This document shows, one piece after another, positions 8,922-28,038 of a stretch of DNA of 64,000 nt (the first letter of the stretch is position 1; the number at the start of each line of letters is the position of its first letter). The notes beneath the pieces are model-generated. The model searched no databases. It was not told the origin of the DNA and worked only from the letters and a program-made list of their open reading frames with translations. Made by a program: the position numbers and the translations under genes. The stretch comes from a virus, in the IMG/VR virus record IMGVR_UViG_3300010218_000004, positions 1 to 64,000 of that record, one strand, 5' to 3'.

Positions 8922-8951
8922 GGCGCCCCGGCACTCGACCGCCGGGGCGCC
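8922..8951 (+). terminator. Hairpin with the conserved loop ACUCGACC
   Basis: GGCGCCCCGGC-ACTCGACC-GCCGGGGCGCC. Confidence 0.65.
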
Positions 8952-9005
8952 GAATACCGCCGGCCGCCACCTCTGGCGCCCGGCCCCTCATACATAGCCC
9001 GATAA

Positions 9006-9038
9006 AGTCATGCGCGTGCGTATGACTTACGATAGGGT
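9006..9038 (+). promoter_or_regulatory. Promoter/operator AGTCAT-N10-ATGAC-N6-TAGGGT
   Basis: Inverted repeat AAGTCAT...ATGACTT overlapping a -10-like TAGGGT, 12 nt before the ATG at 9051. The same architecture occurs at 11226-11258. Confidence 0.5.
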
Positions 9039-9050
9039 TGTGAAGCCGAC

Positions 9051-9623
9051 ATGACCCACCCAGACACAAAGGACACGCGCACCATGACCCTCCGCCGCCC
9101 GAAGATCACACGCCGAGACTGCTACGCCACCGCCGCCCTCATCGCCTACATCGCCACCATCCCTGGCGCGAACTGGCTCGTGACCCACCTCGGCCCCGTC
9201 AGTGTCGGCTTCGGCTACAGCGCCCCGGCTGGCGTATACCTCGTCGGCCTCACCCTCGTCCTGCGTGACGCCGTGCAGCAGCTCCTCGGCCGCCGCGCCG
9301 CCCTCCTGGCCGTCGCCCTCGGCGTCGCCGTCTCATACGCCCTCGCTGACCCAACCCTGGCCCTCGCGTCCGTCGTCGGGTTCGCCGTCTCCGAACTCGC
9401 CGATACCGCCGTCTACACCTCACTCCGCGACCGCGGCCTCATCGGCGCCGTCCTCGCCGCGAACGCCGTCGGTCTCGTCCTCGACAGCGTGCTGTTCCTC
9501 GGGATCGCCTTCCACAGCCAGGAGTACCTGCCCGGCCAGATCCTCGCGAAGACGTACATGACGCTCGCCGCCGTCGTCGTCATAGCCGCCTACCGGCGCC
9601 CGGCCCGGAGGCTCGTCGCGTGA
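9051..9623 (+). CDS. yhhQ: YhhQ/VUT-family queuosine-precursor (preQ0/preQ1) transporter
   Basis: Multi-pass membrane protein. Carries ANWLV...LRDAVQ...SELADTAVYTSLR...ANAVGLVLDSVLF, typical of the YhhQ/DUF165 family. Confidence 0.8.
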   Translation: MTHPDTKDTRTMTLRRPKITRRDCYATAALIAYIATIPGANWLVTHLGPVSVGFGYSAPAGVYLVGLTLVLRDAVQQLLGRRAALLAVALGVAVSYALADPTLALASVVGFAVSELADTAVYTSLRDRGLIGAVLAANAVGLVLDSVLFLGIAFHSQEYLPGQILAKTYMTLAAVVVIAAYRRPARRLVA

Positions 9624-10531
9624 GAGCCAAGCTCATGCTTGGTACCTGCGAGGATCACTGGCTCTGGTCGGATGACCCCCGTTTCGACGGCATCACCTTC
9701 TTCGTCTCCCGTAACCGCTTCGCGCGGCGCAAGAAGGAGATGCCGCGGGCCCTCCACCCCTTCGCCATGGATTCCGGCGGATACACGGAGCTCCAGCGGC
9801 ACGGCCGCTGGCGCTCCACCCCGCAGGAATACGTCGACGAGGTACGCCGCTACATCAGCGAACTCGGCGAGGACATGGTCCTGTGGATCGCCCCGCAGGA
9901 CTGGATGACCGAGCCCTGGACGATCTTCGGCGGATGGCACGACGGCCAGCACTTCGTCGGTACCCGCGAGGCCCGCGGCCTCGCCCCCGGCGACCCCGAG
10001 CAGGACCTCACCACCGCCGCCCGTATCCACATCCGTTACACCGTCGACAACTTCCTCGAGCTGAGGCGAATCGCCCCCGACCTCAAAATCATCCCGGTAC
10101 TCCAGGGCCAGAAGCTCGACGACTACAAGTACTGCGCCAGCCTCTACGAGGCAGCCGGTATCGACCTCGCCGCCGAACCCGTCGTCGGCCTCGGCAGTGT
10201 CTGCCGCCGTGAGGCCACCCTCGAAATCGCCGAACTCGTCGCCCACTTCACCGACCTCGGCCTCAACCTCCACGGCTTCGGAGTCAAGTCGAGCGGCCTC
10301 AGCCTCTACGGAGACGACCTCGTCTCCGCCGACTCCCAAGCCTGGTCCTTCGGGATGCGCCGTCGCAAGAAGGGCCCCGACGGCAGCCGCCGCCTCCCCG
10401 GATGCACACACCGCGCCCAGACATGCGCGCACTGCCCGGAGGCCGCAGTCCGCTGGTACCGCCGTGCTCTCAACAGCGCGCACCCCGAGAACGGCTGGCA
10501 AATGACGCTGGACATGGCCGTCGTCGCGTGA
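9620..10531 (+). CDS. dpdA: DpdA-like (tRNA-guanine transglycosylase superfamily) 7-deazaguanine DNA transglycosylase
   Basis: Has the TGT catalytic motif AMDSGGYTELQ, a second Asp region (DDLVSADSQAWSF) and a C-terminal Cys cluster (C..C..C). Coupled to yhhQ. Confidence 0.8.
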   Translation: MRAKLMLGTCEDHWLWSDDPRFDGITFFVSRNRFARRKKEMPRALHPFAMDSGGYTELQRHGRWRSTPQEYVDEVRRYISELGEDMVLWIAPQDWMTEPWTIFGGWHDGQHFVGTREARGLAPGDPEQDLTTAARIHIRYTVDNFLELRRIAPDLKIIPVLQGQKLDDYKYCASLYEAAGIDLAAEPVVGLGSVCRREATLEIAELVAHFTDLGLNLHGFGVKSSGLSLYGDDLVSADSQAWSFGMRRRKKGPDGSRRLPGCTHRAQTCAHCPEAAVRWYRRALNSAHPENGWQMTLDMAVVA

Positions 10532-11154
10532 ACGCGCCCGCCCCGCCACGAGATAGGAACCGACCGGTGACCGTAGCCCTCATCCCGCCCATCACCGGGT
10601 ACCCGGGCCGTATCGAGGCGACCGCTCTGACCGAGGGCCCCCGCTTCGTCCGCACCGAGGCCATGACCCGCTGGCACCGGCCCCGCTCCGCGTTCCTCCG
10701 GCACCGCGACTCGGTCACCGTCTTCGACCTGTGGTGCGGGCAGATCACGTTCAGCTACAAGGCCCTCACCGCCGACACCGTCCCGGCTGGCGACCGGGTG
10801 TGCGCCACCTGCGACGGTCGCGCGGTCGGCGCCGGCCAGGAGACGGACGGCCCGGCCGGCCGCACCCTCACCTTCCAGCCCCGCCACCTCAACCCGCCCC
10901 GCAACTGCCCCGGTTCCCGGACCGGCATGTTCGAGGAGCTCCCCGGCGGCCGCGCCGGCCGATGCCTCGTCTGCGGCGACTGCCAGCCGCTGCGCGCCAT
11001 GGGAGGCCCGTACGCCTCCCGCTACGCGATCGTCCAGCACGACCCCGGCAAGGCCCTCGTCGCACCGTGCCCGTTCCACCGCTGGCGCGCCCTGTCCGCC
11101 CGTGACGGCCGCATCTACTGCCCGTGCGGCACCGAGTTGAGGCCCGTCACGTAG
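10528..11154 (+). CDS. Hypothetical Cys-rich protein
   Basis: GTGA coupling to dpdA (GTG 10567 is the alternative start). Contains several CxxC pairs. Confidence 0.55.
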   Translation: MNAPAPPRDRNRPVTVALIPPITGYPGRIEATALTEGPRFVRTEAMTRWHRPRSAFLRHRDSVTVFDLWCGQITFSYKALTADTVPAGDRVCATCDGRAVGAGQETDGPAGRTLTFQPRHLNPPRNCPGSRTGMFEELPGGRAGRCLVCGDCQPLRAMGGPYASRYAIVQHDPGKALVAPCPFHRWRALSARDGRIYCPCGTELRPVT

Positions 11155-11225
11155 GCCCGCCCATCCCGCCGTTCCCCCCGGCCCGCCCGACGGGTGCGGG
11201 GTAGTGGCGCATCACACCAAACAAA

Positions 11226-11425: not shown

Positions 11426-11441
11426 GCCCGGGACCCACCGC

Positions 11442-16811: not shown

Positions 16812-16818
16812 CGCGTAA

Positions 16819-16844
16819 GCCCCCGAGCCTCGATGCTCGGGGGC
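16819..16844. terminator. Hairpin between the convergent blocks, loop CTCGAT
   Basis: GCCCCCGAGC-CTCGAT-GCTCGGGGGC. Confidence 0.65.
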
Positions 16845-16866
16845 CTTCGTGTGTTTCCGGGGCTGG

Positions 16867-17072: not shown

Positions 17073-17110
17073 TGTAGCTACAGCTTGGCATGCCGTGTAG
17101 CTACACGCAA
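17073..17110 (-). promoter_or_regulatory. Promoter cassette P1: TTGCGT(-35)-TGTAGCTACA...-10-TGTAGCTACA
   Basis: Perfect palindromes at 17073-17082 and 17096-17105. The -35 TTGCGT is the complement of 17105-17110. Confidence 0.7.
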
Positions 17111-17176
17111 GGGGGTCGGGGGAGGATGACCATGCCGACCGTCACCCCTCGACCGGGTGGCGGCCGGCGCAGCACG

Positions 17177-17776
17177 TCAGTGGTCCGGCGCGCCGTACAT
17201 GTCGGGGGTTTCGTCGAGGCAGCCGGGGCACATGCAGCGGCACGACTCCTCGTAGCCCGTGCACGGTCCCGGCCGTCCCGGCTCCCCGTCCTCGTGCGCG
17301 AGGACGCCCGGGCACGGCGGCCCCGGGTTCGGGCAGTCGGCGACGGCCATCTCATGCCGGGCGCACCAGGTGCGCATGCCGACGTCCAGCTGTGCGTCAC
17401 CCCAGGCGTGGTCGTACCGTCGGGCGTCCGGCTCCCACGGGCACAACGCCTCCACCGTCGGGAGCGGGCAGGCCGGCGGCCCCATGTGGTCGCCGGGCGC
17501 CGTGTGCCAGGTACGGCCGTCGGGGCCGACCCAGTCCACCCACTCCAGCTCCTCGACGCCGAACCGGGACCGCTGCCGCCACCAGCGGGTAGCGGCGACA
17601 CCGCAGTCCAGGCAACGCCGGTACTCCCTACCGACCGCCTCGTCCCGGTGCCCCAGCTCCCACCGGTGCTCTCCCCACACTGCCCGGGCCCGCTCGGTGA
17701 GCTGCGCACGGAAGGCGTCAACCACGGCCCGGTCGCCGGGCGTCAGGCGGGCGCGCGGGTCGTTACCGCAGCGCAT
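17177..17776 (-). CDS. Hypothetical Cys-rich protein
   Basis: Internal ATG of ORF 17177..17884 that overlaps the upstream stop (TGATG). Confidence 0.6.
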   Translation of the reverse strand: MRCGNDPRARLTPGDRAVVDAFRAQLTERARAVWGEHRWELGHRDEAVGREYRRCLDCGVAATRWWRQRSRFGVEELEWVDWVGPDGRTWHTAPGDHMGPPACPLPTVEALCPWEPDARRYDHAWGDAQLDVGMRTWCARHEMAVADCPNPGPPCPGVLAHEDGEPGRPGPCTGYEESCRCMCPGCLDETPDMYGAPDH

Positions 17777-18051
17777 CACCGGGCCACCGCCGCGAGGCAC
17801 GCCGCGATGATGACCACCGACGGGGTGTCGCTCGGGAAGTCGACGACGGCGCCGTTCGGGCAGGTGAGGCCGGAGTCGTTGCACTCGTTGGTGACCGCGA
17901 ACACGGCACCGTCACGGCGCACCATGCTGAGCGGGTACTCGGGGTCGGCGGTCCAGCCGGCGGCCTCGAGGGCCTCGACGACGTCGACGCGGTCGAGCCA
18001 CCCCGGCTCGGGCCGGTCGAAGGCGATACGGACCCGCCCCGCGGTGCTCAC
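17776..18051 (-). CDS. Hypothetical protein (91 aa)
   Basis: GTGA coupling to the 18048..19037 gene. Tail of ORF 17776..18609. Confidence 0.55.
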   Translation of the reverse strand: MSTAGRVRIAFDRPEPGWLDRVDVVEALEAAGWTADPEYPLSMVRRDGAVFAVTNECNDSGLTCPNGAVVDFPSDTPSVVIIAACLAAVAR

Positions 18052-19037: not shown

Positions 19038-19058
19038 CGGTGGGTGTCCCTTCCGGGG

Positions 19059-19466: not shown

Positions 19467-19488
19467 CGGGGCTCCCTTCTCCGTGGTG

Positions 19489-19527
19489 TGTAGCTACATC
19501 ATATGCGTGTCGTGTAGCTACACGCAA
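19489..19527 (-). promoter_or_regulatory. Promoter cassette P2
   Basis: TGTAGCTACA at 19489-19498 and 19513-19522. On the minus strand: -35 TTGCGT, -10 TATGAT. Confidence 0.7.
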
Positions 19528-19547
19528 GAGGGTTGGGGGAAACGACT

Positions 19548-19580
19548 TCACCCCCGGCCAGGTCGAGTGGCCGGGGGTGA
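19548..19580 (-). terminator. Hairpin, RNA loop CUCGACC
   Basis: 13-bp stem TCACCCCCGGCCA/TGGCCGGGGGTGA. The plus-strand loop is GGTCGAG. Confidence 0.65.
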
Positions 19581-19593
19581 AGTGCGGGGGACG

Positions 19594-20001
19594 TCAGGGG
19601 CGGGCGGCGAGAATCGCGCGGGCGGAGGCGAGCAGGCCGGCGACCGCCTGCGTCACCGTCTCGCCCGGGCGGACGGTGTTGTTGCGCTCCAGGCAGAACA
19701 CCCGGAACTTCTCCCGCGTCGACCCGAACTCCACCGGCTCGTACGCGGCCAGCCACTCCCGGGCGCGCTCCGCGTCCTGCTCCCACTTCGCCTGCGCCCC
19801 GGCCGCCTGGTTGGCGACCCAGGTGGACTTGCGGCCGAGGGCGCGGGCGGCGCACGCGGTGCCGTAGTAGACGACCTCGCCCTCCTCGTTCCCGTCGACA
19901 TCCAGGGGCATGAGGGCGACGACCCGCTTGAGGCCGCGCCGGGTGCAGCAGCCGCAGGTGTCGGTGTCGTCGTTGATGCCCTTGATGATGAAGCCGGCCA
20001 T
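19594..20001 (-). CDS. Hypothetical protein
   Basis: ORF track entry. Monocistronic between P3 and the hairpin. Confidence 0.65.
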   Translation of the reverse strand: MAGFIIKGINDDTDTCGCCTRRGLKRVVALMPLDVDGNEEGEVVYYGTACAARALGRKSTWVANQAAGAQAKWEQDAERAREWLAAYEPVEFGSTREKFRVFCLERNNTVRPGETVTQAVAGLLASARAILAARP

Positions 20002-20030
20002 GGTGTCCTCCGCGTGTTCCGCGCCGTCCG

Positions 20031-20069
20031 TGTAGCTACAGACTAAGTGCCGTGTGTAGCTACACGCAA
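20031..20069 (-). promoter_or_regulatory. Promoter cassette P3
   Basis: TGTAGCTACA at 20031-20040 and 20055-20064. TTGCGT-N18-TAGTCT. Confidence 0.7.
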
Positions 20070-20140
20070 GCGGGTGGGTGAGCGAAACCGCCCCACCCGG
20101 GAGGGTGCGGCGGACTGGCGAGGAGTGAACGACCGGCGAG

Positions 20141-20173
20141 GCGCACCCCGGCCCGGTCGAGTGGCCGGGGCGC
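20141..20173 (-). terminator. Hairpin, RNA loop ACUCGACCG
   Basis: Stem CCCCGGCC/GGCCGGGG with extensions. The plus-strand loop is CGGTCGAGT. Confidence 0.6.
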
Positions 20174-20186
20174 CGCAGGGGGTGGG

Positions 20187-20525
20187 TCAGGCGGCGAGCG
20201 CCATGCGGGCGACGGCCGCCTTGTACTCGTCCTTCCGCGGTCGGTAGTTGGCGCGCAGCACGGCGACCTGGGCCGGCGTGTACCGGTAGGAGGGGCGCAG
20301 CCGGTCGGCGTCCCGGTGGGTGCGCGCCACCTTCACCGGCTGCACGTTGAGGCGCTTCGCGACGGAGCGCAGGCCGGAGGCGACGCCGTCGGCGGTCTTC
20401 GCGTCGACCCCGGCGGCGAGGGCGTGCGTCTTGAGGGAGCGGCCCCGGCGGAGGGAGGTGACGAGGCGGGTGGCGGCGGAGCGCTCGCGGATGATGCGGC
20501 GGGCGGTGCGTGAGTTCTGGTTCAT
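20187..20525 (-). CDS. Hypothetical basic protein
   Basis: ORF track entry. Lies between P4 and the hairpin. Confidence 0.65.
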   Translation of the reverse strand: MNQNSRTARRIIRERSAATRLVTSLRRGRSLKTHALAAGVDAKTADGVASGLRSVAKRLNVQPVKVARTHRDADRLRPSYRYTPAQVAVLRANYRPRKDEYKAAVARMALAA

Positions 20526-20566
20526 CGGTGCCTCCTGTGCTGTCCGGCCGGGCCGTCCCCGTTCCG

Positions 20567-20604
20567 TGTAGCTACAGACTAAGTGCTGTGTAGCTACACA
20601 CCAA
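20567..20604 (-). promoter_or_regulatory. Promoter cassette P4
   Basis: TGTAGCTACA at 20567-20576 and 20589-20598. TTGGTG-N17-TAGTCT. Confidence 0.65.
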
Positions 20605-20640
20605 GGGGGTTTTGCCTGGTCAAGCCACCGAAAAACGCGG

Positions 20641-20671
20641 CCGCCCCCGTCAGGTCGAGTGACGGGGGCGG
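20641..20671 (-). terminator. Hairpin, RNA loop CUCGACC
   Basis: CCGCCCCCGTCA-GGTCGAG-TGACGGGGGCGG. Confidence 0.65.
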
Positions 20672-20687
20672 CCGGCGCGCGCAGGGG

Positions 20688-21056
20688 TTAGGCGGCCTGG
20701 CGACGCAGGCGCCGGGTGTTGCGGAGGAAGTTGCGGGCGGCGTCACGCCGCATGCGCTCGAGGTCGTTCGTGATCGCGCACGTGCTCTGCGACTCGCTGC
20801 GCTCCAGCAGGAGTTCGGTGCACTCCTCGCGGACGCTGTCCAGGGCCTCGAGGGCGCCGGCCTTCTCTAGGCGGTTGAGCACCTGCCGCCACGGCAGGGC
20901 CTCCGCCTGGGCCGTCATGACGGGCTTGAGGGTGTGGGCGTCGATGTAGCCGCCGGTGGAGACGACGTCGGCGAGCGCCTTGCGGGCCCGGCCCTCGGTG
21001 TCGATGGCGCAGCCGGCGTTGAAGCGGATCGTCTCGGCGAGGTCGGTGTTCGTCAT
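20688..21056 (-). CDS. Hypothetical protein
   Basis: ORF track entry. Downstream of P5. Confidence 0.65.
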   Translation of the reverse strand: MTNTDLAETIRFNAGCAIDTEGRARKALADVVSTGGYIDAHTLKPVMTAQAEALPWRQVLNRLEKAGALEALDSVREECTELLLERSESQSTCAITNDLERMRRDAARNFLRNTRRLRRQAA

Positions 21057-21100
21057 GTCGGGCTCCCTGTCGGGGTGGTGGGGCGGTCCGTCCCGCTCCG

Positions 21101-21138
21101 TGTAGCTACAGACTAGAGGTGCGTGTAGCTACACGCAA
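21101..21138 (-). promoter_or_regulatory. Promoter cassette P5
   Basis: TGTAGCTACA at 21101-21110 and 21124-21133. TTGCGT-N17-TAGTCT. Confidence 0.7.
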
Positions 21139-21206
21139 GGGGGTTGGGGGAGATGGCTGCGCCCCGACGGGACTACCTCCCGCCGGGGCGCAGCGCACGC
21201 GGCACG

Positions 21207-21650
21207 TCACACGGCCACCGGCTGCAACTCCTCCCGAGTTACCGCGTCGTCGGCCGGGGGCACGTGGTGGACGATGCACGTGCCGGAGTTGCAGGGCCGG
21301 CCCACCTCTCCGTCCCAGTAGGCGCGGTGCGCGTCGATGGCGGCGGCCTCCCAGTCGTCGCCATCGGTGAACTCCGGGCGCCGCTCGGCCCACTTGGCGA
21401 ACGCGCGGGCCAGGTCGGGGCGGGTGTAGAACTCGGACAGGCCGTGGTACTTCACCAGGTTGACCCAGGAGGCCCGGACGGAGTCGTAGGAGCGGCGGGA
21501 GTAGTCGTGGCCGCTGCTGGGGTCGATGTCCTCAAGGGCGGTACCCGACTCGATACAGAGGGCGGTACGGGCGTCCGCCATCGATGTGCGGTTGTCGGCC
21601 ATCCCGTGACAGTTGGCGTAGCGCATGATCAGGAACGTGGAGCGCTTCAT
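21207..21650 (-). CDS. Hypothetical protein
   Basis: ORF track entry with a GAGGAGG RBS. It has no promoter cassette of its own and lies behind the hairpin at 21691-21727. Confidence 0.65.
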   Translation of the reverse strand: MKRSTFLIMRYANCHGMADNRTSMADARTALCIESGTALEDIDPSSGHDYSRRSYDSVRASWVNLVKYHGLSEFYTRPDLARAFAKWAERRPEFTDGDDWEAAAIDAHRAYWDGEVGRPCNSGTCIVHHVPPADDAVTREELQPVAV

Positions 21651-21690
21651 GCGGCCCCTCCTCGATGGTTGTGCGGCGTGTGGTCGGGGT

Positions 21691-21727
21691 GGGCCGCCCC
21701 TGCCCGGTCGAGTGGCGGGGGCGGCCC
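21691..21727 (-). terminator. Intra-operon hairpin, RNA loop ACUCGACCG
   Basis: 14-bp stem with one mismatch. The plus-strand loop is CGGTCGAGT. Confidence 0.55.
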
Positions 21728-21743
21728 GTGGTGGTGCCGGGTG

Positions 21744-22088
21744 TCAGGCGAGCGTGTTGAGCGGGATACGGAGCGGGGCGCCGGTGAACGGGATCTCCGC
21801 GAGGAGGTCGCGGAGCCGTTCGGCGCCCGCGATCCGCCTCCGGGCCTGCTCGGCGAACGGGTTGCCCTCCTCCGGGGCGTGCGCGAGGAGCGGCACGAAC
21901 AGGAACCCGCCGGAGGCGTTGCGCAGGACGCCCTCGGTGAGGGACCAGCGCCGGCGGTCGAAGTTCACGAGAATCGTGAGCGACTCGAAGGTGCCGATGC
22001 GCTCCTCCACCGCGGCCGCCTGACGGGCGGCCCGGATGAGGTCCGGCGAGATGTAGTCGACGGAGAGTTCAGCGGCAGTGTTGTGCAA
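21744..22088 (-). CDS. Hypothetical protein
   Basis: TTG start six nt after a GGGAGGA RBS, inside ORF 21744..22166. The upstream part of that ORF is the promoter cassette. Confidence 0.55.
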   Translation of the reverse strand: MHNTAAELSVDYISPDLIRAARQAAAVEERIGTFESLTILVNFDRRRWSLTEGVLRNASGGFLFVPLLAHAPEEGNPFAEQARRRIAGAERLRDLLAEIPFTGAPLRIPLNTLA

Positions 22089-22129
22089 GGGGAATCCTCC
22101 CTGGTGGGCCGGGGCCCTGCGCCCTGGCG

Positions 22130-22168
22130 TGTAGCTACAAGCTAAGTGGCCTATGTAGCTACACACAA
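22130..22168 (-). promoter_or_regulatory. Promoter cassette P6
   Basis: TGTAGCTACA at 22130-22139 and 22154-22163. TTGTGT-N18-TAGCTT. Confidence 0.65.
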
Positions 22169-22180
22169 GGGGTCGGGTGA

Positions 22181-23092
22181 TCAGAAGAACGCGACCTGAC
22201 CAGGCTCTACCGGCTCCTCCGGCGCGTCATCGACGACGTCGACGGGCACGGCCGCACGGAACGCGGCCGCCACCTCCGCCGTGCTCCGGCCCGGCACGTT
22301 CCCCCACATCAGGACCGTCCCCCGAAGCTGCCGCGCCGCCTCCCAGTCGTCGCCGCTGAGGTTCAGCGGGCCACCCGTCAGGTGTTCGACGAGCAGCCGG
22401 GGAACGGCCGGCCGCACCGCCCAGTAGGCGCGCCACGCATCACTCTCGGCCGAAGACGGCTTCGCCGCGACGAGTGCCCGGTCCAGGGCGTGGAGCATCG
22501 TGCACGGCGCCGAGTCGACGTACCCGGCCGGGTCGTGCGTCTCCCCGCCCGGCCGGTGCCCGACGTCCTCGATGTGCGCGGCCGCCCACTCCAGCACGCC
22601 CGCCACGGTCACCGGGCGCAGCGCACGCGCAGGCCGGCCCGGCCGTACAGCGGCCGCCAGGACGTCGTCCGCGACCCCGGCGGCCTCCCGGAACAGGGCG
22701 GCCACGTCGGCGCCCGTACGCCCCTCCTGCATGCCCCAGTGGTGCACGACGAACCGGCGGTGCCGCTCCTCGTCGGCCCATTCCATGTCGTGCACCATCG
22801 CGCCGCCGGCGGCGAGGTCGGAGACGACGTCGAGGGCCAGGCGCGCCGCGGCCCGGATCGCCGGATAGTCGTAGGTGCGGGCGCTGGCCATTCGGCCGTC
22901 GCCGCCGGCGACGTCGAGGGCGCCGAGGATGCCCGGGCGCAGGAGCCGTGTCGTGGTGGTGGAGCCGTCCCGGCCGAACCGTTCGCCGTCGCGGCCGTCG
23001 TGGAACCCGCGGGCCTCGATGTGCGCGGCCGCCCACTCGAGCAGGTCGGGCGCCGTGGTCGGCAGGACGGTGGACTCGACGCTGTAACGCAT
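22181..23092 (-). CDS. Hypothetical protein with an internal tandem domain duplication
   Basis: LLEWAAAHIEARGFHDG... and VLEWAAAHIEDVGHRPGG... each begin a ~130-aa repeat that ends in ...GR(T/S).A(D/E)VAA.FR.AA.V. Confidence 0.65.
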   Translation of the reverse strand: MRYSVESTVLPTTAPDLLEWAAAHIEARGFHDGRDGERFGRDGSTTTTRLLRPGILGALDVAGGDGRMASARTYDYPAIRAAARLALDVVSDLAAGGAMVHDMEWADEERHRRFVVHHWGMQEGRTGADVAALFREAAGVADDVLAAAVRPGRPARALRPVTVAGVLEWAAAHIEDVGHRPGGETHDPAGYVDSAPCTMLHALDRALVAAKPSSAESDAWRAYWAVRPAVPRLLVEHLTGGPLNLSGDDWEAARQLRGTVLMWGNVPGRSTAEVAAAFRAAVPVDVVDDAPEEPVEPGQVAFF

Positions 23093-23119
23093 GATGCCTC
23101 CGTAGGGGCGTGCAGGGGT

Positions 23120-23150
23120 GCGCCCGGGCGCGGTCGAGGGGCCCGGGCGC
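23120..23150 (-). terminator. Intra-operon hairpin, loop contains GGTCGAG
   Basis: GCGCCCGGGC-GCGGTCGAGGG-GCCCGGGCGC. Confidence 0.55.
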
Positions 23151-23164
23151 GGAGATCGGGTGGG

Positions 23165-23368
23165 TCAGGCGGTGGCGGTGGCGGCGATGGCCTCGCGGCG
23201 CAGCGCGTAGCCGTAGCCGAGGAAGCCGTTCGCGGTGTCCTCGACGGGCCGGCCGTTCGCGTCGAAGGCGCGGAAGGTGCCGAGGTGGCCGGTGACGTAG
23301 CCCTTGCGGACGCCGTTGCGGTAGACGTCGAGGCGGCCGTGTCCGGCGCGGCGGGTGGTGACGTGCAT
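23165..23368 (-). CDS. Hypothetical small protein (67 aa)
   Basis: ORF track entry, flanked by two conserved-loop hairpins. Confidence 0.55.
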   Translation of the reverse strand: MHVTTRRAGHGRLDVYRNGVRKGYVTGHLGTFRAFDANGRPVEDTANGFLGYGYALRREAIAATATA

Positions 23369-23401
23369 GGGTGACTCCTCGAGAGTGTCGGAACGGGTGA
23401 T

Positions 23402-23436
23402 GCGGGCTCCGGCGCGGTCGAGGTGCCGGAGCCCGC
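23402..23436 (-). terminator. Intra-operon hairpin, loop contains GGTCGAG
   Basis: GCGGGCTCCGGC-GCGGTCGAGGT-GCCGGAGCCCGC. Confidence 0.55.
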
Positions 23437-23447
23437 CCGGGCGGGGA

Positions 23448-24128
23448 CTACGCCCGCAACGTGGTCAGGATGTTCACGGCGCCCTCGACGGCCGTGACCG
23501 AGTCGCGGCCGACGTGCACGGCCGCCGCGTACCAGCCGCCCCCCGTGCAGGGCGCCATCAGCTGGTATCCCTCGCAGTCGCCGTAGCAGTCGCGCGCCTC
23601 GCACTCCATCACCCAGAAACGGCCGCCCGACAGCTGCTTGAGGGAGCCGTGGTAGGTGACCTGGGTACCGTCGCGCAGCGGCACGGGGCGCACCGGGCGC
23701 ACCGGCGCGGGAGCCTGGTACGGCTCCGGCTCGACGTCGACGGCGAGGCCCTGCCCGGCCGCCTGGCGGGCGTTGACGACCTGCGCCGCGCCCTGGCGGA
23801 GGTTGCGGGTCGTACCGGCGGCGAAGAAGTCGCCGTTGACGACGTCGAACCACTCGACGTGCACGCGGGTGCCCGCGCCCTGGAGGAGGACGCCGACGAC
23901 GTCGCCGCCCTGCACGACCTTCCAGCCGCGCACGGTGAGGAGGAACTGCGCCTCGTCCCAGCCGCGGGTGTTGAGGCCGGCGGCCGCCCACTCCCAGTCC
24001 GCGAGCTCGGCGGGCAGCATGCCCTCCAGGGTGACGGTGACGTCGCCGACGGTGCGGAGGACCAGGGCGCCCGCCGCGTCGCGCTCGCCGGCGAGGACGT
24101 TGCGGGTGGTGAAGGTGATCGCCTTCAT
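23448..24128 (-). CDS. Hypothetical protein
   Basis: ORF track entry. First gene downstream of P7. Confidence 0.65.
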   Translation of the reverse strand: MKAITFTTRNVLAGERDAAGALVLRTVGDVTVTLEGMLPAELADWEWAAAGLNTRGWDEAQFLLTVRGWKVVQGGDVVGVLLQGAGTRVHVEWFDVVNGDFFAAGTTRNLRQGAAQVVNARQAAGQGLAVDVEPEPYQAPAPVRPVRPVPLRDGTQVTYHGSLKQLSGGRFWVMECEARDCYGDCEGYQLMAPCTGGGWYAAAVHVGRDSVTAVEGAVNILTTLRA

Positions 24129-24172
24129 GGTGGCCTCCGTGGAGGTTGGTGGTGCGGGTCCGTCCCGCTCCG

Positions 24173-24211
24173 TGTAGCTACACTCTAAGGAGTTTGTGTA
24201 GCTACACGCAA
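24173..24211 (-). promoter_or_regulatory. Promoter cassette P7
   Basis: TGTAGCTACA at 24173-24182 and 24197-24206. TTGCGT-N18-TAGAGT. Confidence 0.7.
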
Positions 24212-24239
24212 GCCTGGTTCGGCCAGGAATCTCAACCCA

Positions 24240-25349
24240 TCACGCGGAGGCGCACAGTTCCCCCACCTCGTCCCGCAACGCGGCCACCACATCCGCGTCG
24301 AGGGAGTACCGGGCGACCTCCTCATCAGTCGGCACCCAGCCGGTCGGCCGCTTCCGCCACGTGTGCGTGAACGGCACGCCCTCCACGCAAGCCCACGCCT
24401 GCCGCATCCGCTCCTGCAACTCCTCCGCCGCGGCCCGCTTCTCCCACTCCGCCAACCACCGCGCACGCTCGACGCACCGCCGCTCCTCCTCGGCCCAGAA
24501 CGCCCGGGAGCGGCGGGCCTGCTCCTCACCGCCGCGCAGTGGCCGCAGAGGCTCCCGCCACCGGTTACGCGGCAACTCGACCGGAGTGGGGCGCACACGC
24601 TCCCACGCCGCCAGCGCGCGGCGTCCGTCGACGGTCGGCGTGATGTGGCGGCGGCCGCCGTCGTCGGGATCGCCGACCGTCAGGAACCAGGCGTCGGTGA
24701 GGGCATCGAGCGGGGTGGCGGCGACGCGGCGCCCAACGCGGCCCGGTGCGGTGACGCGGCGCAGCACGCCAGCGGCGTCGATGAGGAGTTGCCCGGCGGC
24801 GGCCCACGTCACGAGGTCGGCATGCCGGGTGGACCAGTGCAGGGCGGCGGCCTGCTCCTCCAGGCGGTGCTCATCGTGCACGTCTACGGCCGGCTCCTCC
24901 ACCACCGTCTCGACGGCCGACTCCTCAACAGCCGGCTCCTCGAGGGCCGTCTCGGCGGCCGGCTCCTCGATGGCCGCGGCCGGCTGCTCAACGACAGGCT
25001 CGGCTACGGGAGCGACAGGGGCGGCCTCGACCGCCACCGGGGCGGTCTCACGGACGCGGGGGCCCGAGTTCATGATCGACGTGAACGGGCGGCCGCTGTC
25101 GCTGTACCGGACGGAGACGCGGAACGGGAAACCGCTAGCGTCCGTCCTTTCCTCGATCTCGTCGGCGTTGGCGGCGATGACCTCCTCGGCGTGCCGGCTG
25201 TAGACGACGACGTACGTGTAGAGGCGCTCGCCGTTGCGGTACTCGCCGGTGACCCGGAAGTCTCCGCCGCGCCCCTGAGTCAGGCCGAGGCGGCGCAGCT
25301 CGCGGGCGAGTCCGACGGTGGGGGTGGTGGGCGGGGCGATGAGGGTCAT
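24240..25349 (-). CDS. Hypothetical protein with an acidic EEPA(V/A)E repeat linker
   Basis: Internal ATG with an AAGGAG RBS. The upstream part of ORF 24240..25451 is promoter sequence. Confidence 0.65.
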   Translation of the reverse strand: MTLIAPPTTPTVGLARELRRLGLTQGRGGDFRVTGEYRNGERLYTYVVVYSRHAEEVIAANADEIEERTDASGFPFRVSVRYSDSGRPFTSIMNSGPRVRETAPVAVEAAPVAPVAEPVVEQPAAAIEEPAAETALEEPAVEESAVETVVEEPAVDVHDEHRLEEQAAALHWSTRHADLVTWAAAGQLLIDAAGVLRRVTAPGRVGRRVAATPLDALTDAWFLTVGDPDDGGRRHITPTVDGRRALAAWERVRPTPVELPRNRWREPLRPLRGGEEQARRSRAFWAEEERRCVERARWLAEWEKRAAAEELQERMRQAWACVEGVPFTHTWRKRPTGWVPTDEEVARYSLDADVVAALRDEVGELCASA

Positions 25350-25385
25350 GATGGCTGCTCCTTCCGGGGGCCGATCGCCCCGTTG

Positions 25386-25423
25386 TGTAGCTACAGCTTG
25401 CCTGATCGTGTAGCTACACGCAA
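25386..25423 (-). promoter_or_regulatory. Promoter cassette P8
   Basis: TGTAGCTACA at 25386-25395 and 25409-25418. -35 TTGCGT. Confidence 0.65.
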
Positions 25424-25451
25424 GGAATGTTGTGCCAGATCGGCGAGACAA

Positions 25452-25931
25452 TCACAGTCGGGGCAGAAACTCATCGAACGCGGCCTCCGCGGCCTCCGCG
25501 TGCGTGACCGGCGTGAGGGTGACGAAGGGCTCCGTGTCGCCCCACGTCACGCTGGCGCCCGTCGAGGGGTTCAGGAACGTCCCCTCCCACGGTCCGCGGG
25601 AGCGTTCGCCGACGGTGCCGCCCTCAACGAGGGAGACCTCGGCGCGCACGGTGCTACTCCCGGGGACTGCTCCGGACCACTCGGGCCCGGCGGCCTGGTC
25701 CCTCACCTGCTCGGGGAACACCGGCCGGTAGTAGGCACGGATGATGTCGGCGGCGTCCGGGGCGAGGTCGGCGTCGCCGGCGTGGATGAGGGTCCGGAAG
25801 ACGCTCCGGTGCCCCTTCCCCCACTCCTCGGCCCTGAGGGCGAGTTCCGTTGCGGCGTCGATGATGGCGTCGGGCATGACGTCCAGTTCGGCGGCGAGCG
25901 CGAGGGCGCTGACGTTGACACGGGTGCGCAT
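25452..25931 (-). CDS. Hypothetical protein
   Basis: ORF track entry. Confidence 0.6.
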   Translation of the reverse strand: MRTRVNVSALALAAELDVMPDAIIDAATELALRAEEWGKGHRSVFRTLIHAGDADLAPDAADIIRAYYRPVFPEQVRDQAAGPEWSGAVPGSSTVRAEVSLVEGGTVGERSRGPWEGTFLNPSTGASVTWGDTEPFVTLTPVTHAEAAEAAFDEFLPRL

Positions 25932-26027
25932 GACGATCGGTCCTTCCAGGGGTGGGATGGCGGGGCGCCCCGACGGGGGATGTCGGGGCGGTTGCGGCGC
26001 TGGGTATGGGGCAGGGGGGTTGCGGGG

Positions 26028-26270
26028 TCAGCGGTTGCCCGTCGCCGGCGGGGTGTCGGCGTCGGCGTCGGGGAGGGCGTTGCGGAGGCCCCTGTCGCAC
26101 CCCGTCCCGTCGGCGGTTCGCGATGCGGTCTCGTAGGCGCGTCGGGCTTCGGTGGCCCCAGCGGTGAGCCGCTCCGCGGCGGCGCGAGCGTCGGCGGCGG
26201 CCTTCTCCATCTGTAGTGCTGCGACGTACAGGGCGCTGATCAGTTCGGGCGCAGGCTCCGGGGTGGCCAC
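26028..26270 (-). CDS. Hypothetical protein
   Basis: ORF track entry. Confidence 0.5.
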   Translation of the reverse strand: MATPEPAPELISALYVAALQMEKAAADARAAAERLTAGATEARRAYETASRTADGTGCDRGLRNALPDADADTPPATGNR

Positions 26271-26274
26271 CGAC

Positions 26275-26463
26275 TTAGCCCCTGCCCGCGACGATCACCG
26301 GCTGATGCTTCGGGTAGGTGACCTGATCTCCGTTGGAGTAGGTGATCGTCACGGTGTCTGCCTCTTCCTCGACTCGGTCGACGAGGTACGGGAACGGGTC
26401 GTCCTCGCGGATCACTCGGTCGTTGCGAGTGAGGCTGTCGGCGGTGGTGATGCTGGCCTTCAT
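26275..26463 (-). CDS. Hypothetical small protein
   Basis: ORF track entry with a GGAGGA RBS. First gene downstream of P9. Confidence 0.55.
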   Translation of the reverse strand: MKASITTADSLTRNDRVIREDDPFPYLVDRVEEEADTVTITYSNGDQVTYPKHQPVIVAGRG

Positions 26464-26506
26464 GGGAGTCCTCCGTGGAGATTAGTGGGGCGACTTGCCT
26501 GCTGCG

Positions 26507-26545
26507 TGTAGCTACACTTTAAAGGTAATGTGTAGCTACACGCAA
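26507..26545 (-). promoter_or_regulatory. Promoter cassette P9
   Basis: TGTAGCTACA at 26507-26516 and 26531-26540. TTGCGT-N18-TAAAGT. Confidence 0.7.
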
Positions 26546-26557
26546 GGGGTGGTGGGC

Positions 26558-26935
26558 TCAAAGGCCGATCGCGCCCCGCGCCCCTTCCGGGGCGGTCTCC
26601 GGGTTCCCGTCCCACGGGTTCTCGGGGTCCTCGCCGTCCAGGAGGATCGGGTCGGGGTCGGGGGCGTCGACGTCGCACCAGCACGGGCGGCGCGTCTTGC
26701 AGTCCGCGCACCACGTCGGCGACGGCGCGCACCCGGGCCGGTAGCAGCCCTCGTCCCAACACAGCGGGCAGACGTCCCGGTTGTCGCGGGTGCGGTGCCA
26801 GCCACGGGAGCGGAGGAGCCGGCGGATCTTCTCTGCCGTGGTGTGCCACGGGTACAGGCCGCGCCCCTCGGCCGGGCACGCGGTGCCGGGCCCTCCGGGT
26901 GTGCCGTCGCAGCCGATGACGAGTCGAATGGTCAC
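26558..26935 (-). CDS. Hypothetical Cys-rich protein
   Basis: ORF track entry. Contains CPLCWDEGC...CADCKTRRPCWC. Confidence 0.6.
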   Translation of the reverse strand: MTIRLVIGCDGTPGGPGTACPAEGRGLYPWHTTAEKIRRLLRSRGWHRTRDNRDVCPLCWDEGCYRPGCAPSPTWCADCKTRRPCWCDVDAPDPDPILLDGEDPENPWDGNPETAPEGARGAIGL

Positions 26936-27225
26936 GACGTCTCACCCCCGCGCGGCGCCCAGGCGGGGCAGTGGACGCGCAGGCCGGCGTCCAGGTCGCG
27001 CCCGGCGTTGCAGCCCTCCGGCCAGCCGGGGTGCTGCTCGTACGGGCCCTCCTCCGCCGGCTCGTAGTGCACGCACGTCTTGCAGGCCCGGACGGCCGGG
27101 TTCTGCCAGCAGCGGCCGATGTGCGCCGTGGCGGCCGCCTTCTTCGCCCGGGTGATGCGGCAGAACGGGCACTGATGCCGGACGACGACGACGGGGATGG
27201 GCAGGGTGACGAGTGTGGGCTTCAA
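26932..27225 (-). CDS. Hypothetical zinc-finger-like protein
   Basis: Contains CPFC...CKTC...C..C. The stop overlaps the next start. Confidence 0.6.
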   Translation of the reverse strand: MKPTLVTLPIPVVVVRHQCPFCRITRAKKAAATAHIGRCWQNPAVRACKTCVHYEPAEEGPYEQHPGWPEGCNAGRDLDAGLRVHCPAWAPRGGETS

Positions 27226-27290
27226 TGCAGCCTCCTCCTCGCATGGTTGGGCCCGGCCGCCGGGGTGGGCGGCCGGGCGTACGGGCAGGG

Positions 27291-27983
27291 TCAGGGGCGG
27301 CTGACGTTGCGGGCGATGTTGTCCAGGGAGGCCCGGATCTCGTCGAGGACGGCGATGAGGGCCTGGGTCTCCGCGGACGGGCGCGGCGCCGGCTCCGGCA
27401 TCCGCTTCGGGCCCTGACGGCGGGCGAGGAGGACGTCATACGCCCGGTTGAATCGGTCGTCGGCGAGCTTGAGCCCGGTGAACGCCCCCGACGCGTAGAC
27501 CCGGAAGTCACCGACGAGCAGCACGTGTCCCTCCTCCTCGTCGAAGGAGGCGTGCACGCTGTAGAGGCTGCGCTGCGGGTCGGCGTGCGCCAGCAGGGCG
27601 GGGACGAGGCGGCCGTCGCGCGCGGTGGCCGGCTCGATGGGGGTGATGCCGAGTTCGGCGAGGTGCGTGTTGACGTCCTTCGCGAGGTCGGCGACCCACT
27701 CCGCGCTGTAGCGCTCGGCCTCGGCCTCCCGGGCGGCGTACTTCGCCTCCTCCACGGCGAGCCAGTCCGGGGTGACGTCACCGGTCGCCCAGGAGTCCTC
27801 GACGGCCGCCTCCGACAGCCCGTACTGCGTGGCGTACGAGAGGGCGCGGTCGCGGACGCGGAAGCGGGCCGGGTTCGTCTCCTGCGGGCTGAGCCGCACC
27901 ACGTAGCGGGCGGGCTGCTCCTCCATGACGTCCGCCTCTACGGTGCTCTCCGGCTCGCGAGCGGCGTTGGTGTCGGTGCTCAT
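27291..27983 (-). CDS. Hypothetical protein
   Basis: ORF track entry. Confidence 0.65.
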   Translation of the reverse strand: MSTDTNAAREPESTVEADVMEEQPARYVVRLSPQETNPARFRVRDRALSYATQYGLSEAAVEDSWATGDVTPDWLAVEEAKYAAREAEAERYSAEWVADLAKDVNTHLAELGITPIEPATARDGRLVPALLAHADPQRSLYSVHASFDEEEGHVLLVGDFRVYASGAFTGLKLADDRFNRAYDVLLARRQGPKRMPEPAPRPSAETQALIAVLDEIRASLDNIARNVSRP

Positions 27984-28009
27984 GGTGTTCCCTTCAATCG
28001 GTGGGTGCC

Positions 28010-28038
28010 GCGCCCCGGTAGGTCGAGGACCGGGGCGC
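28010..28038 (-). terminator. Intra-operon hairpin, loop contains GGTCGAG
   Basis: GCGCCCCGGT-AGGTCGAGG-ACCGGGGCGC. Confidence 0.55.

Follow-up and report, generated by a model that had tools for sequence, protein, structure and literature searches.

Features of the locus

The window analysed is a stretch of 64,000 nucleotides (positions 1 to 64,000 of the IMG/VR virus record IMGVR_UViG_3300010218_000004) with a rightward and a leftward arm of genes. The leftward arm contains at least ten repeats of a repressible promoter cassette, whose core GTAGCTAC was found 23 times against 0.1 expected (Table 1). Ten hairpins of one family were found in the window, all of them read in the sense of their upstream gene and with predicted RNA folding energies of -25 to -39 kcal/mol. 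The eight that had been listed in the original prediction were all present where it had placed them, with the loop that it had given when read along the upstream gene; the list was incomplete, as it had missed the hairpins at 4432-4461 and 5671-5709. The former recurs in two relatives, A and B (L029 9759 and L022 5112), and the latter, together with ORF 5472-5656, is an insertion relative to the same two genomes. The hairpin at 20143-20173 has orthologues in five relatives with a compensated GG/CC swap within the stem, and that at 21691-21727 is identical to its orthologue in relative B, the C.A mismatch included.

Table 1. Hairpins and promoter cassettes located in the window
Feature	Position	Strand	Sequence or structure	Score (bits)	Folding energy (kcal/mol)	Context
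Family hairpin, additional to first eight	4432..4461	+	GGGCCGCCGCC-CCTCGACC-GGCGGCGGCCC	36.0	-28.6	14 nt past stop of gene 3920-4417; RBS of next gene directly after
Family hairpin, additional to first eight	5671..5709	+	loop CCTCGACCT	38.2	-31.9	14 nt past stop of 61-codon ORF (5472-5656); 24 nt before rusA start
Family hairpin	8922..8951	+	loop ACTCGACC	33.9	-29.1	11 nt past stop of 8605-8910
Family hairpin	19545..19583	-	16-bp stem; loop CUCGACC	46.4	-35.8	10 nt past stop of 19594-20001; weak U-rich tail, then promoter cassette 19490-19521
Family hairpin	20143..20173	-	loop ACUCGACCG	46.9		13 nt past stop of 20187-20525
Family hairpin	20638..20674	-	15-bp stem	52.4	-39.3	then T5 run and promoter cassette 20568-20597
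Family hairpin	21691..21727	-		48.7		operon-internal; next start 40 nt downstream
Family hairpin	23120..23150	-		39.7		operon-internal; next start 27 nt downstream
Family hairpin	23402..23436	-		49.3		operon-internal; next start 33 nt downstream
Family hairpin	28007..28041	-		44.9		operon-internal; next start 23 nt downstream
Convergent (bidirectional) terminator hairpin, non-member	16817..16846	.	stem GCCCCCGAGC	21.8		between thyX (+) and leftward arm; stem conserved in five genomes
Chance hairpin, non-member	39079..39116	+	loop ACTCGACC	18.6		inside type III PKS-like ORF
Repressible promoter cassettes, at least 10 repeats	17074..28531	-	CTTGCGT-GTGTAGCTACAC-N9-12-TGTAGCTACAC pairs
Cassette cores	17074/17097, 19490/19514, 20032/20056, 20568/20590, 21102/21125, 22131/22155, 24174/24198, 25387/25410, 26508/26532, 28501/28524	-	GTAGCTAC

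The heptamer CTCGACC occurs 50 times in the window against 25 expected, and the true signal is its placement within hairpin loops. It is carried by 12 of the 99 window hairpins with at least nine matched stem pairs, and ten of these 12 scored 33.9-52.4 bits with the covariance model. Non-family hairpins in the window all scored 26 bits or less, and the antisense reading of one family hairpin alone reached 28.9 bits. Two candidates were rejected. The CTCGACC-loop hairpin at 39079-39116 was assigned to chance, its orthologue having the loop CCTGCACC. The hairpin at 16817-16846, which had been proposed (as 16819-16844) to carry a variant loop CUCGAU, is not a member; its stem is kept in the orthologues while the loop changes (ATCGTC, GAAGAT, GACGAT and ATCACC).

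Loop constancy and stem covariation

The covariance-model search of related genomes that had been suggested with the original prediction was performed on six genomes (183 kb); it yielded 81 family copies, and the relatives retain both the hairpins and the loop. The loop core CTCGACC was unchanged in 79 of the 81 copies across genomes diverged by approximately 25-35% (the two exceptions were CTCGACT and CTCAACC), an apparent invariance that is partly circular because the family was first gathered by the loop motif; this circularity is lessened, though not abolished, by the score gap, by comparing orthologues and by a search that started from the operator. Relative C, which was recovered via the operator rather than the loop, has eight copies.

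Loops are 7-9 nt and stems 11-16 bp long across the family. In the 81-copy alignment, 96% of the cells were paired, double compensatory changes (on both sides) were found at 11 of the 12 stem pairs, and the covariation score was 0.625, against 0.149 when shuffled and at most 0.13 when slid. The stems thus differ among copies, as had been noted earlier, but they are not free: the seven loop-proximal pairs are strongly biased (CCC-S-G-C-C), G12:C26 is almost invariant, the 7 bp adjoining the loop are conserved as CCCSGCC/GGCSGGG, and the stems have the common consensus GCGCCCCGGCC. The 5' arms are C-rich and the 3' arms G-rich, and G.U and A.C pairs numbered 21 vs 10 in the sense reading. In a sample of 127 viral hairpins with the same stem, the loops were diverse and none was CTCGACC. 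At orthologous sites the stems were altered with compensation and CTCGACC was kept, whereas orthologous non-family hairpins kept their stems and altered their loops. This supports, from comparison of sequences, the earlier proposal that selection acts on the loop. A fixed loop above a lower stem with compensating mutations suggests that some factor reads the loop CUCGACC.

Another explanation would be that ordinary gene-end hairpins (U-less terminators or stabilisers) were spread by duplication and gene conversion of a single ancestor, the loop being functionless and constant through recent descent or homogenisation. The copies are indeed homologous and not convergent because the stems have a clear common consensus, neighbouring copies are near-identical and local copying is therefore ongoing, and the absence of the family in the more distant relatives L370 and L374 fits a recent expansion in one clade. 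However, conversion tracts that homogenised the 7-nt loop would homogenise the 14-nt arms too, and yet the arms of non-adjacent copies are unlike at 6 of their 14 positions (median), against a loop altered in 2 of the 81 copies. Orthologues flanked by proteins of 65-88% identity changed their stems and never the loop, the unconstrained loops of other hairpins of these genomes had all changed, and the model scores are gapped, with no continuum of decaying loops. We consider a functionless loop unlikely.

Distribution among relatives and behaviour at the DNA level

The family is hosted by a group of approximately 100-kb Streptomyces phage or phage-plasmid genomes; a seventh relative, beyond the six genomes modelled, also carries it. 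No match was found in Rfam or among isolated phages, and the hairpins of phiC31 have diverse loops with no CTCGACC family. Behaviour at the DNA level, namely local copying and module boundaries, was absent from the original prediction and is not predicted by an RNA function, and some evidence for it exists. Near-identical arms were found in 13 of 50 adjacent pairs of copies vs 15 of 325 distant ones (Fisher p = 7.7e-6), and the genes upstream of like-armed neighbouring copies are unrelated and not paralogues. Homology blocks end at the foot of hairpins, with 18 of 101 block ends located within 15 nt of a hairpin; the hairpins together occupy 2.1% of the sequence.

These data, together with the ORF-plus-hairpin unit inserted relative to relatives A and B and the mosaic gene content between hairpins among relatives, would fit the view that the hairpins are DNA recombination sites or cassette boundaries, by which gene-plus-hairpin modules are inserted, excised or exchanged among related phage-plasmids. 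In tyrosine-recombinase core sites, inverted arms flank an asymmetric overlap of 6-8 bp, which is necessarily identical in partner sites, and the family resembles this architecture in that its conserved inner arms, CCCSGCC/GGCSGGG, are inverted and enclose an invariant, asymmetric core of 7-9 bp; alternatively, the site would be a folded single strand akin to integron attC. On the other hand, neither the scanned window ORFs nor the genes called in L369, L371 and L375 yielded an integrase, HUH or transposase domain, the covariation spans 12-16 bp, well past any duplex binding site, and the hairpins with mismatched arms to which a crossover in the loop would give rise were not seen. Block ends at conserved intergenic islands are expected regardless, the indels examined are not flanked by two hairpins, and the orientation tracks gene direction in two opposed arms. 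We consider a role as recombination sites quite unlikely.

Position relative to genes and promoters

The orientation was that of the adjacent genes in every copy checked (the copies of both window arms, a set of 45 copies, and those of L369 and L371, for which genes had been called). Of 84 copies, 82 are preceded by a stop triplet at no more than 40 nt, the median distance being 11 nt (interquartile range 8-13). The next RBS and start codon directly follow in 30 of the 45 copies, and the next gene directly follows the hairpin in six of the ten window copies. Only 12 of the 84 copies have at least four T within the next 10 nt, and the terminator scan was passed by one of the ten window copies (20638-20674, with its T-run), the sole one that resembles a canonical intrinsic terminator; most copies had been said to lack a U-tract, and this holds. 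The four operon-internal hairpins that had been described as having no promoter cassette downstream do lack one, and the hairpin positions show no relation to the repeated repressible promoters. The earlier argument that the hairpins cannot be complete terminators is thus supported, at the level of sequence, by the lack of a U-tract, by the location of most copies within operons and by the lack of association with promoter cassettes.

Asymmetric motifs that are repeated many times, restricted to short gaps between genes and in a single orientation relative to transcription are reportedly what defines stoperators, the double-stranded DNA regulator sites of mycobacteriophage L5, and the loop motif shares this distribution. 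If it were such a site, with the inverted repeat as a separate terminator-like feature, the stem covariation would be unexplained; moreover, the lineage has another sequence as its operator, namely the promoter-associated palindrome GTGTAGCTACAC, L375 switched its operator yet kept the loop, and the motif is never a conserved intergenic site without a hairpin, so that we regard this as very improbable. Least probable is a reading in which the hairpin serves the gene that follows it, as a 5' element: either a translational operator or, on the model of N4, a hairpin promoter used by a phage RNA polymerase. For this reading, nearly every gene of the leftward arm is preceded by a promoter cassette or a hairpin, and within operons 21-40 nt separate the hairpin from the next start codon. 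Against it, the hairpins keep a narrow spacing from the upstream stop and a loose one from the next start (21 to more than 140 nt), several copies close gene arrays (L369 14020 and window 8922 are examples), a full promoter cassette follows three window copies, and a gene for a large virion-type or single-subunit RNA polymerase was not seen in the window.

Comparison with known systems

Very stable G+C hairpins right past the stop and without a U-tract are known from actinomycetes as U-less ('I-shaped') 3' ends, the class HS-U-lack of Term-seq (PMC8269248), and from the Streptomyces phage phiC31, whose early terminators are cited as poly-U-less (Ingham et al. 1995, cited in PMC2602773). Among highly structured 3' ends of S. 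clavuligerus, stable U-less hairpins were the commoner (353 vs 182), and a C-rich 5' arm and a G-rich 3' arm were also seen at Streptomyces transcript 3' ends by Term-seq (PMC8269248); actinobacterial RNA polymerase did not terminate in vitro at U-less hairpins (PMC3993855). The present family shares the arm composition and the Streptomyces phage early region with these hairpins; they are not known to share any sequence, whereas in the present family more than 80 copies agree in a fixed 7-nt loop and in the upper stem.

REP/BIME elements of enterobacteria are likewise repeated extragenic palindromes, often right past stops and within operons, which also behave as repeats at the DNA level; they stabilise upstream mRNA segments and affect translation when less than about 15 nt from the stop. 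Unlike the present family, REP is defined by stem sequence and a GTAG head and not by the loop, is not a phage feature and occurs in hundreds per chromosome, mobilised by RAYT transposases, for which no similar gene was found here. Lambda boxB, in the nut site, is also a hairpin of phage early transcripts with a loop sequence that a protein reads, but its loop is GNRA-like and 5 nt long, its stem has 5 bp, boxA is nearby and there are one or two promoter-proximal copies. As to the boxB-like target proposed earlier, the hairpins do not qualify as boxB by the size and type of the loop, by copy number (at least ten here) or by position (each copy after a gene), and no conserved box was found in their flanks.

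Stoperators of cluster A mycobacteriophages such as L5 occur in tens in both arms, but as 13-bp duplex repressor operators free of hairpins. T7 RNase III sites and T4 CUUCGG hairpins lie between phage genes in polycistronic transcripts, with conserved sequence features and stable 3' ends; the former are long bulged substrates, for which the present stems are too short, and the loop of the latter is conserved because the tetraloop is exceptionally stable, whereas a CUCGACC loop of 7-9 nt has no known special stability. Each cassette gene of an integron likewise ends in an imperfect palindrome, attC, which is gene-oriented, has a structure maintained by covariation and is found in mosaic arrays, but attC has conserved boxes at the stem base and a variable apex and depends on IntI, attI and Pc; in the present family it is the apex that is constant and the base that varies.

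Possible function

We give about an even chance to the explanation that we favour, namely that the hairpins work as RNA stem-loops between cistrons, where they define or protect the 3' ends of mRNAs or attenuate transcription, with the loop and the upper stem as the handle of a putative factor. From the strand and position rules we infer that RNA is the active form, and the effect on the transcript and the existence of such a factor are inferred as well; a single-stranded DNA hairpin of the sense strand would obey the strand and position rules equally well. Scans of about 70 window ORFs, most of which are orphans, gave no RNA-binding, antiterminator or nuclease domain; approximately 35 kb of genome sequence is located beyond the window.

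As intercistronic RNA elements, the hairpins would act in cis on early and accessory mRNAs of this Streptomyces phage (or phage-plasmid) lineage. Host RNA polymerase would initiate at the repeated sigma-HrdB-like, operator-flanked promoters and would mostly read through the hairpins because nearly all copies lack a U-tract. Each hairpin would be transcribed as the 3' trailer of its gene, from about 11 nt past the stop, and fold into a very stable G+C stem-loop whose action may be post-transcriptional, or conditional during transcription. It would be a barrier to 3'-to-5' exonucleases, by which the 3' end of the upstream cistron is fixed and stabilised, and/or a factor-dependent attenuator, and the few unit-end copies with a U-run may terminate outright. 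The loop CUCGACC and the upper stem would form the recognition surface for a putative trans-acting protein of phage or host origin, which would be sequence-specific and may set stability, processing or read-through jointly at all these gene boundaries.

Source genome and its relatives

The window has a G+C content of 72%, with genes running rightward at 1-17 kb, leftward at 17-31 kb and rightward again from ~33.5 kb; its ORFs include RusA, a DpdA-type transglycosylase, ThyX, the large terminase and a portal-NUDIX-MuF fusion. No close isolated phage was found by megablast of 12 kb, tblastn of the terminase and the ParB-methyltransferase fusion (ParB-MTase) gave distant matches only (<56% identity), and a plasmid collection showed similarity to Streptomyces plasmids at the gene level only. 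Homologues of one early protein were found in Streptomyces assemblies (S. scabiei, e.g. contig JARAXL010000031.1 of GCA_033793925.1, and several NPDC and NRRL strains), nine of the contigs being about 93-115 kb long. Because these homologues are mostly on contigs of 93-115 kb and there is no close isolated phage, the source is assigned by similarity to a group of Streptomyces phages or phage-plasmids of ~100 kb that has not been described before. The relatives compared were two IMG/VR contigs, A (99 kb) and B (98 kb), with 70-84% nucleotide identity to the window in mosaic blocks; a metagenome relative, C, which was retrieved with the promoter operator and not with the loop; and the Streptomyces contigs L369, L371 and L375, which were retrieved via a protein.

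Several other features of these genomes were observed (coordinates are listed in the table). ParA and DUF2637 genes are present both in the window and among its relatives. A DUF2637 membrane protein in the window and L375 and ParA-like genes in the relative L370, together with the occurrence of relatives as separate contigs of ~95-115 kb in Streptomyces assemblies, suggest a plasmid-like (phage-plasmid) lifestyle. A gene for an MmyB-like HTH regulator is followed by one for a type III polyketide synthase (PKS; chalcone/stilbene synthase-like), an unusual metabolic cargo for a phage, with 74.5% nucleotide identity to relative B (L020). The portal-NUDIX-MuF fusion is one ORF of 1060 codons (portal domain, NUDIX hydrolase domain and Mu-F-like head morphogenesis domain), and the ParB-like nuclease/DNA methyltransferase fusion lies upstream of the terminase. 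That the phage DNA carries 7-deazaguanine modifications is suggested by the DpdA-type transglycosylase and by an ORF resembling a Vut_1 transporter. Two isolated AT-richer palindromes, perfect or near-perfect, in non-coding stretches (TAAGTTTGACCCTG-TCA-CAGGGTCAAACTGA and AAGTCATGCG-CGTG-CGTATGACTT) may be protein-binding sites, e.g. with an origin, partition or regulator function.

Coordinates of hairpins, operator palindromes and other features
Feature	Sequence	Positions
Family hairpins, original prediction	window	8922-8951, 19548-19580, 20141-20173, 20641-20671, 21691-21727, 23120-23150, 23402-23436, 28010-28038
Family hairpins, added by the scan	window	4432-4461, 5671-5709
Near-identical neighbouring hairpins	window	4429/5672, 20638/21691
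Near-identical neighbouring hairpins	L150	18359/18762
Near-identical neighbouring hairpins	L369	2951/4246/4937
Near-identical neighbouring hairpins	L371	10360/10704
Hairpin in the PKS gene	window	39079-39116
GTAGCTAC pairs	window	17074/17097, 19490/19514, 20032/20056, 20568/20590, 21102/21125, 22131/22155, 24174/24198, 25387/25410, 26508/26532, 28501/28524
GTAGCTAC single copies	window	16733, 28594, 43462
Repeated hairpins	L370	1737-1762, 2961-2986, 2583-2615, 3839-3877
Repeated hairpins	L374	10435-10460, 786-819, 3355-3389
DUF2637 membrane protein (ranges reported jointly)	window; L375	31892-33502; 1205-2389
ParA-like genes	L370	10556-11725
MmyB-like regulator and type III PKS	window	37837-39868
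Portal-NUDIX-MuF fusion	window	49508-52690
ParB-MTase	window	41873-43435
DpdA-type transglycosylase	window	9620-10531
Vut_1 transporter-like ORF	window	9051-9623
AT-richer palindromes	window	31440-31470, 9005-9028

Census of the hairpin family

All eight hairpins of the original prediction are present, their loops reading (A/C)CTCGACC in the same sense as the gene upstream, and two further members were found by an unbiased hairpin scan of the window. A covariance model built from 36 copies gave ten matches in the window (33.9-52.4 bits), all in the gene sense; non-family hairpins scored at most 26 bits, and the antisense reading of one family hairpin alone reached 28.9 bits. The hairpin in the PKS gene was rejected as a chance look-alike because of its low score (18.6 bits) and the different loop in its orthologue. 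Another hairpin, at 16817-16846, had been taken for a variant of the family but is not a member: its score was 21.8 bits, and in four relatives the stem GCCCCCGAGC is unchanged with the loops ATCGTC, GAAGAT, GACGAT and ATCACC. It is a putative convergent terminator of the ordinary type and serves as an internal control.

Across 183 kb, 81 matches were obtained at E < 1e-4, and five more in L375; A, B, C, L369, L371 and L375 all carry the family. It is absent from the distant relatives L370 and L374 (~63% protein identity) and from the small plasmid L372, where the loops are assorted. Rfam 15 gave no match at gathering thresholds in the window and none on any hairpin at E up to 5 in 19400-23500. 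No CTCGACC hairpin family was found in a scan of the phiC31 genome, the consensus hairpin gave chance-level matches only (E >= 0.5) against 50,697 phage records, and a motif scan of genome contigs for hosts gave, among the matches listed, single scattered ones, few with good stems. The same stem, CCCCGGCC/GGCCGGGG, is shared by 127 viral hairpins whose loops are diverse, none being CTCGACC. By these comparisons the family is a genuine, lineage-specific and previously undescribed set of gene-end hairpins whose defining traits are the invariant loop and upper stem.

The hairpin-negative lineage L370/L374 has its own small sets of repeated hairpins, with the loops GACC within GTCGACCGG, TTGTCC(TC)G and AGCCNCANNGGC. 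The first set contains TCGACC, partly paired, and may be similar to the form from which the CTCGACC family arose. Several Chloroflexi genomes (MAG contigs L040, L104, L108, L114 and L137) share an identical hairpin (GAACCCCGGG-ACTCGACCAC-CCCGGGGTTC), which probably belongs to a conserved RNA or repeat with no relation to the phage family.

Structure and covariation

The consensus hairpin is GCGCCCCGGCC-A-CTCGACC-G-GGCCGGGGCGC, with loops of 7-9 nt (N-CUCGACC-N) on stems of 11-16 bp. The seven positions of the loop core are invariant in 79 of 81 copies (exceptions, CTCGACT and CTCAACC), and the two flanking loop positions are variable. Pairing was found in 96% of the stem cells, with changes on both sides at 11 of the 12 pairs; the covariation score was 0.625 (0.149 when shuffled; at most 0.13 with slid partners). 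The original prediction that the stems differ while the loop is constant holds for the loop core and for about the outer five pairs, to which free variation is limited, but not for the seven loop-proximal pairs, which are strongly biased (CCC-S-G-C-C), G12:C26 being nearly fixed. Conservation is lowest at the stem base (0.2-0.5 bit), and the apex does not vary. The 5' arms contain 255 C and 149 G and the 3' arms 156 C and 248 G. Of 84 copies, 82 have a stop triplet in the 40 nt before the hairpin (median distance, 11 nt; interquartile range, 8-13), and the flanks (+/-40 nt) carry <0.7 bit per position, being C-rich only, with no conserved motif or 5' head. Among the non-Watson-Crick pairs, sense G.U (21) exceeds A.C (10), which weakly favours selection on the sense strand.

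Conservation of the loop

Since the family was first collected via its loop, three loop-independent checks of selection on the loop were made. At orthologous family sites (window 20143, 20638, 21691 and 23120 compared with A, B, C and L369), the differences between stems are compensatory and the core is always CTCGACC, as expected from the original prediction; at three orthologous non-family hairpins (3325, 6256 and 16817), the stems are retained and every loop is different. The family is present in C although the loop played no part in its retrieval, and the model scores show a gap instead of a tail of decaying loops. Homogenisation alone is insufficient to explain the constant loop, because non-adjacent copies from the same genome show a median of 6 differences in 14 arm positions, while their loops are almost always alike.

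Promoter cassettes and transcription units

The 8-mer palindrome core GTAGCTAC occurs 23 times in the window (0.1 expected), mostly as pairs 23-24 nt apart. These belong to a cassette of the form CTTGCGT-GTGTAGCTACAC-N9-12(cTTAG)-TGTAGCTACAC, which, because of its -35-like TTGCGT and -10-like TAGNNT, looks like a repressible promoter of the host (sigma-HrdB) type with putative operators over the -35 element and the start site; the window would thus hold at least ten copies of one repressible early promoter. In the leftward arm, a cassette comes after only three of the seven family hairpins, and about half of the ten cassettes lack a family hairpin upstream. Of 45 hairpins compared across genomes, 30 have the next RBS and start codon immediately downstream. 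The earlier remark that most copies lack a U-tract was borne out: the terminator scan was passed by one window copy only (20638-20674), and at least four T occur in the next 10 nt in 12 of 84 copies. L375 contains no copy of the window operator palindrome and has other palindromes instead (TTGTATCCACAG and GGTTGTAC). Because its hairpins are kept, the loop is independent of the immunity system.

Hairpins as possible recombination sites

Near-identical 5' arms were found in 13 of 50 adjacent pairs (<1.5 kb) and in 15 of 325 non-adjacent pairs (odds ratio 7.3, p = 7.7e-6), and the genes upstream of such hairpins are unrelated, which suggests local copying or conversion of the hairpins at the DNA level. 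Of 101 ends of homology blocks between genomes, 18 lie no more than 15 nt from a family hairpin (about 2 expected), and an extra unit of a small ORF plus a hairpin precedes rusA in the window; these observations show the hairpins as putative module boundaries. The arm similarity, the block ends and the extra unit keep alive a reading that we judge quite unlikely, namely that the hairpins are folded-DNA (or core-type) recombination sites with the invariant asymmetric apex as crossover or recognition core, and that the early arm of these Streptomyces phage-plasmids is an integron-like cassette array whose units, each a gene with its hairpin, can be inserted, excised and swapped among related elements. 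Hints in its favour are that neighbouring hairpins are unusually alike, that the genes separating them are unrelated and that homology blocks stop at the hairpin foot. However, no recombinase was seen among the ORFs scanned in the window and the called genes of three relatives, the covariation spans more than a duplex binding site would, and the hairpins do not bracket the indels examined. If they work at the DNA level, the hairpins would reveal a mechanism by which gene modules are exchanged to shape the accessory regions of actinophages.

Comparison with known elements

Like intrinsic terminators, the family hairpins are stable and G+C-rich (folding energy, -25 to -39 kcal/mol; z-scores, -2 to -7.9), but apart from 20638-20674 they have no U-tract, and they mostly do not lie at the ends of transcription units. 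In vitro, U-less hairpins did not cause termination by mycobacterial RNA polymerase (PMC3993855). Among the highly structured transcript 3' ends of S. clavuligerus, stable U-less hairpins are the more numerous class and show the same asymmetry of a C-rich 5' arm and a G-rich 3' arm (PMC8269248). The criteria of this HS-U-lack class are a folding energy below about -23 kcal/mol and fewer than three U downstream (PMC8269248), and the family resembles the class of actinomycetes in energy, U content and arm composition. REP/BIME elements are likewise repeated extragenic imperfect palindromes of ~35 nt, often after stop codons, but REP conserves the stem and a GTAG-type head, whereas the family conserves the loop and upper stem and has no 5' head; no HUH/Y1 (RAYT-type) domain was found in the scanned ORFs. 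We regard the family, as judged from its sequence, as a kind of U-less gene-end hairpin or REP-like repeat.

The L5-type stoperator is also an asymmetric intergenic motif in a single orientation relative to transcription, and all family copies checked lie in the sense of the neighbouring genes. It has, however, the sequence of the repressor operator at the early promoter and is a duplex site without a hairpin; the operator of the present lineage is GTGTAGCTACAC, the family motif is always inside a covarying hairpin, and L375 swaps the operator and keeps the loop. In integron attC sites, the base boxes R''/L'' and L'/R' are conserved, the apex is variable and extrahelical bases are present, the opposite of the family with its fixed apex; neither the window nor 20-kb stretches from three relatives yielded an IntI-type integrase with attI and Pc. 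A boxB-like target had been proposed for the loop but does not fit, the loops of 7-9 nt on stems of 11-16 bp differing from the short stem and 5-nt GNRA-like loop of boxB; moreover, ten window copies follow stop codons, whereas lambda nut sites are one or two, promoter-proximal and with boxA. A hairpin acting as promoter, a preQ1 riboswitch and a CRISPR-repeat mimic were rejected on the grounds of anatomy, copy pattern and the lack of any Rfam match.

Proposed function and its reader

In Streptomyces and other high-G+C bacteria, U-less gene-end hairpins are the most frequent kind of structured 3' end, and whether they serve in termination, as an exonuclease barrier or in processing is debated. 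For the present family the function that we infer as most likely is that of an RNA 3'-end or attenuation element: the hairpins would be intercistronic RNA stem-loops that set the 3' end of the preceding cistron and shield it, and/or allow conditional attenuation of transcription, and a specific factor would recognise the loop together with the upper stem.

Pfam and PHROG scans of ~70 ORFs gave no candidate RNA-binding protein and no match to an N-like arginine-rich antiterminator, most ORFs being orphans. A ProQ-like lead was dropped: the Phage_ProQ_C_like gene is in the hairpin-negative L370 and has no homologue in the window or the hairpin-positive relatives. The anti-loop GGTCGAG was not found in a conserved non-coding RNA, its opposite-strand occurrences being coding or unremarkable (e.g. 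41616). As for tRNA mimicry, the window has no tRNA genes, and the loop has U at the position of U33 and C at position 37, where a purine is expected.

Free covariation of the stem with a fixed loop is the signature of a specific reader, and the pattern predicts that such a reader is discoverable. The lineage offers more than 80 natural variants of one U-less element; its reader, once found, would give a tractable model for the punctuation of polycistronic mRNA by actinobacterial phages, and the hairpins may be portable parts for Streptomyces engineering, as insulators or stability tags.
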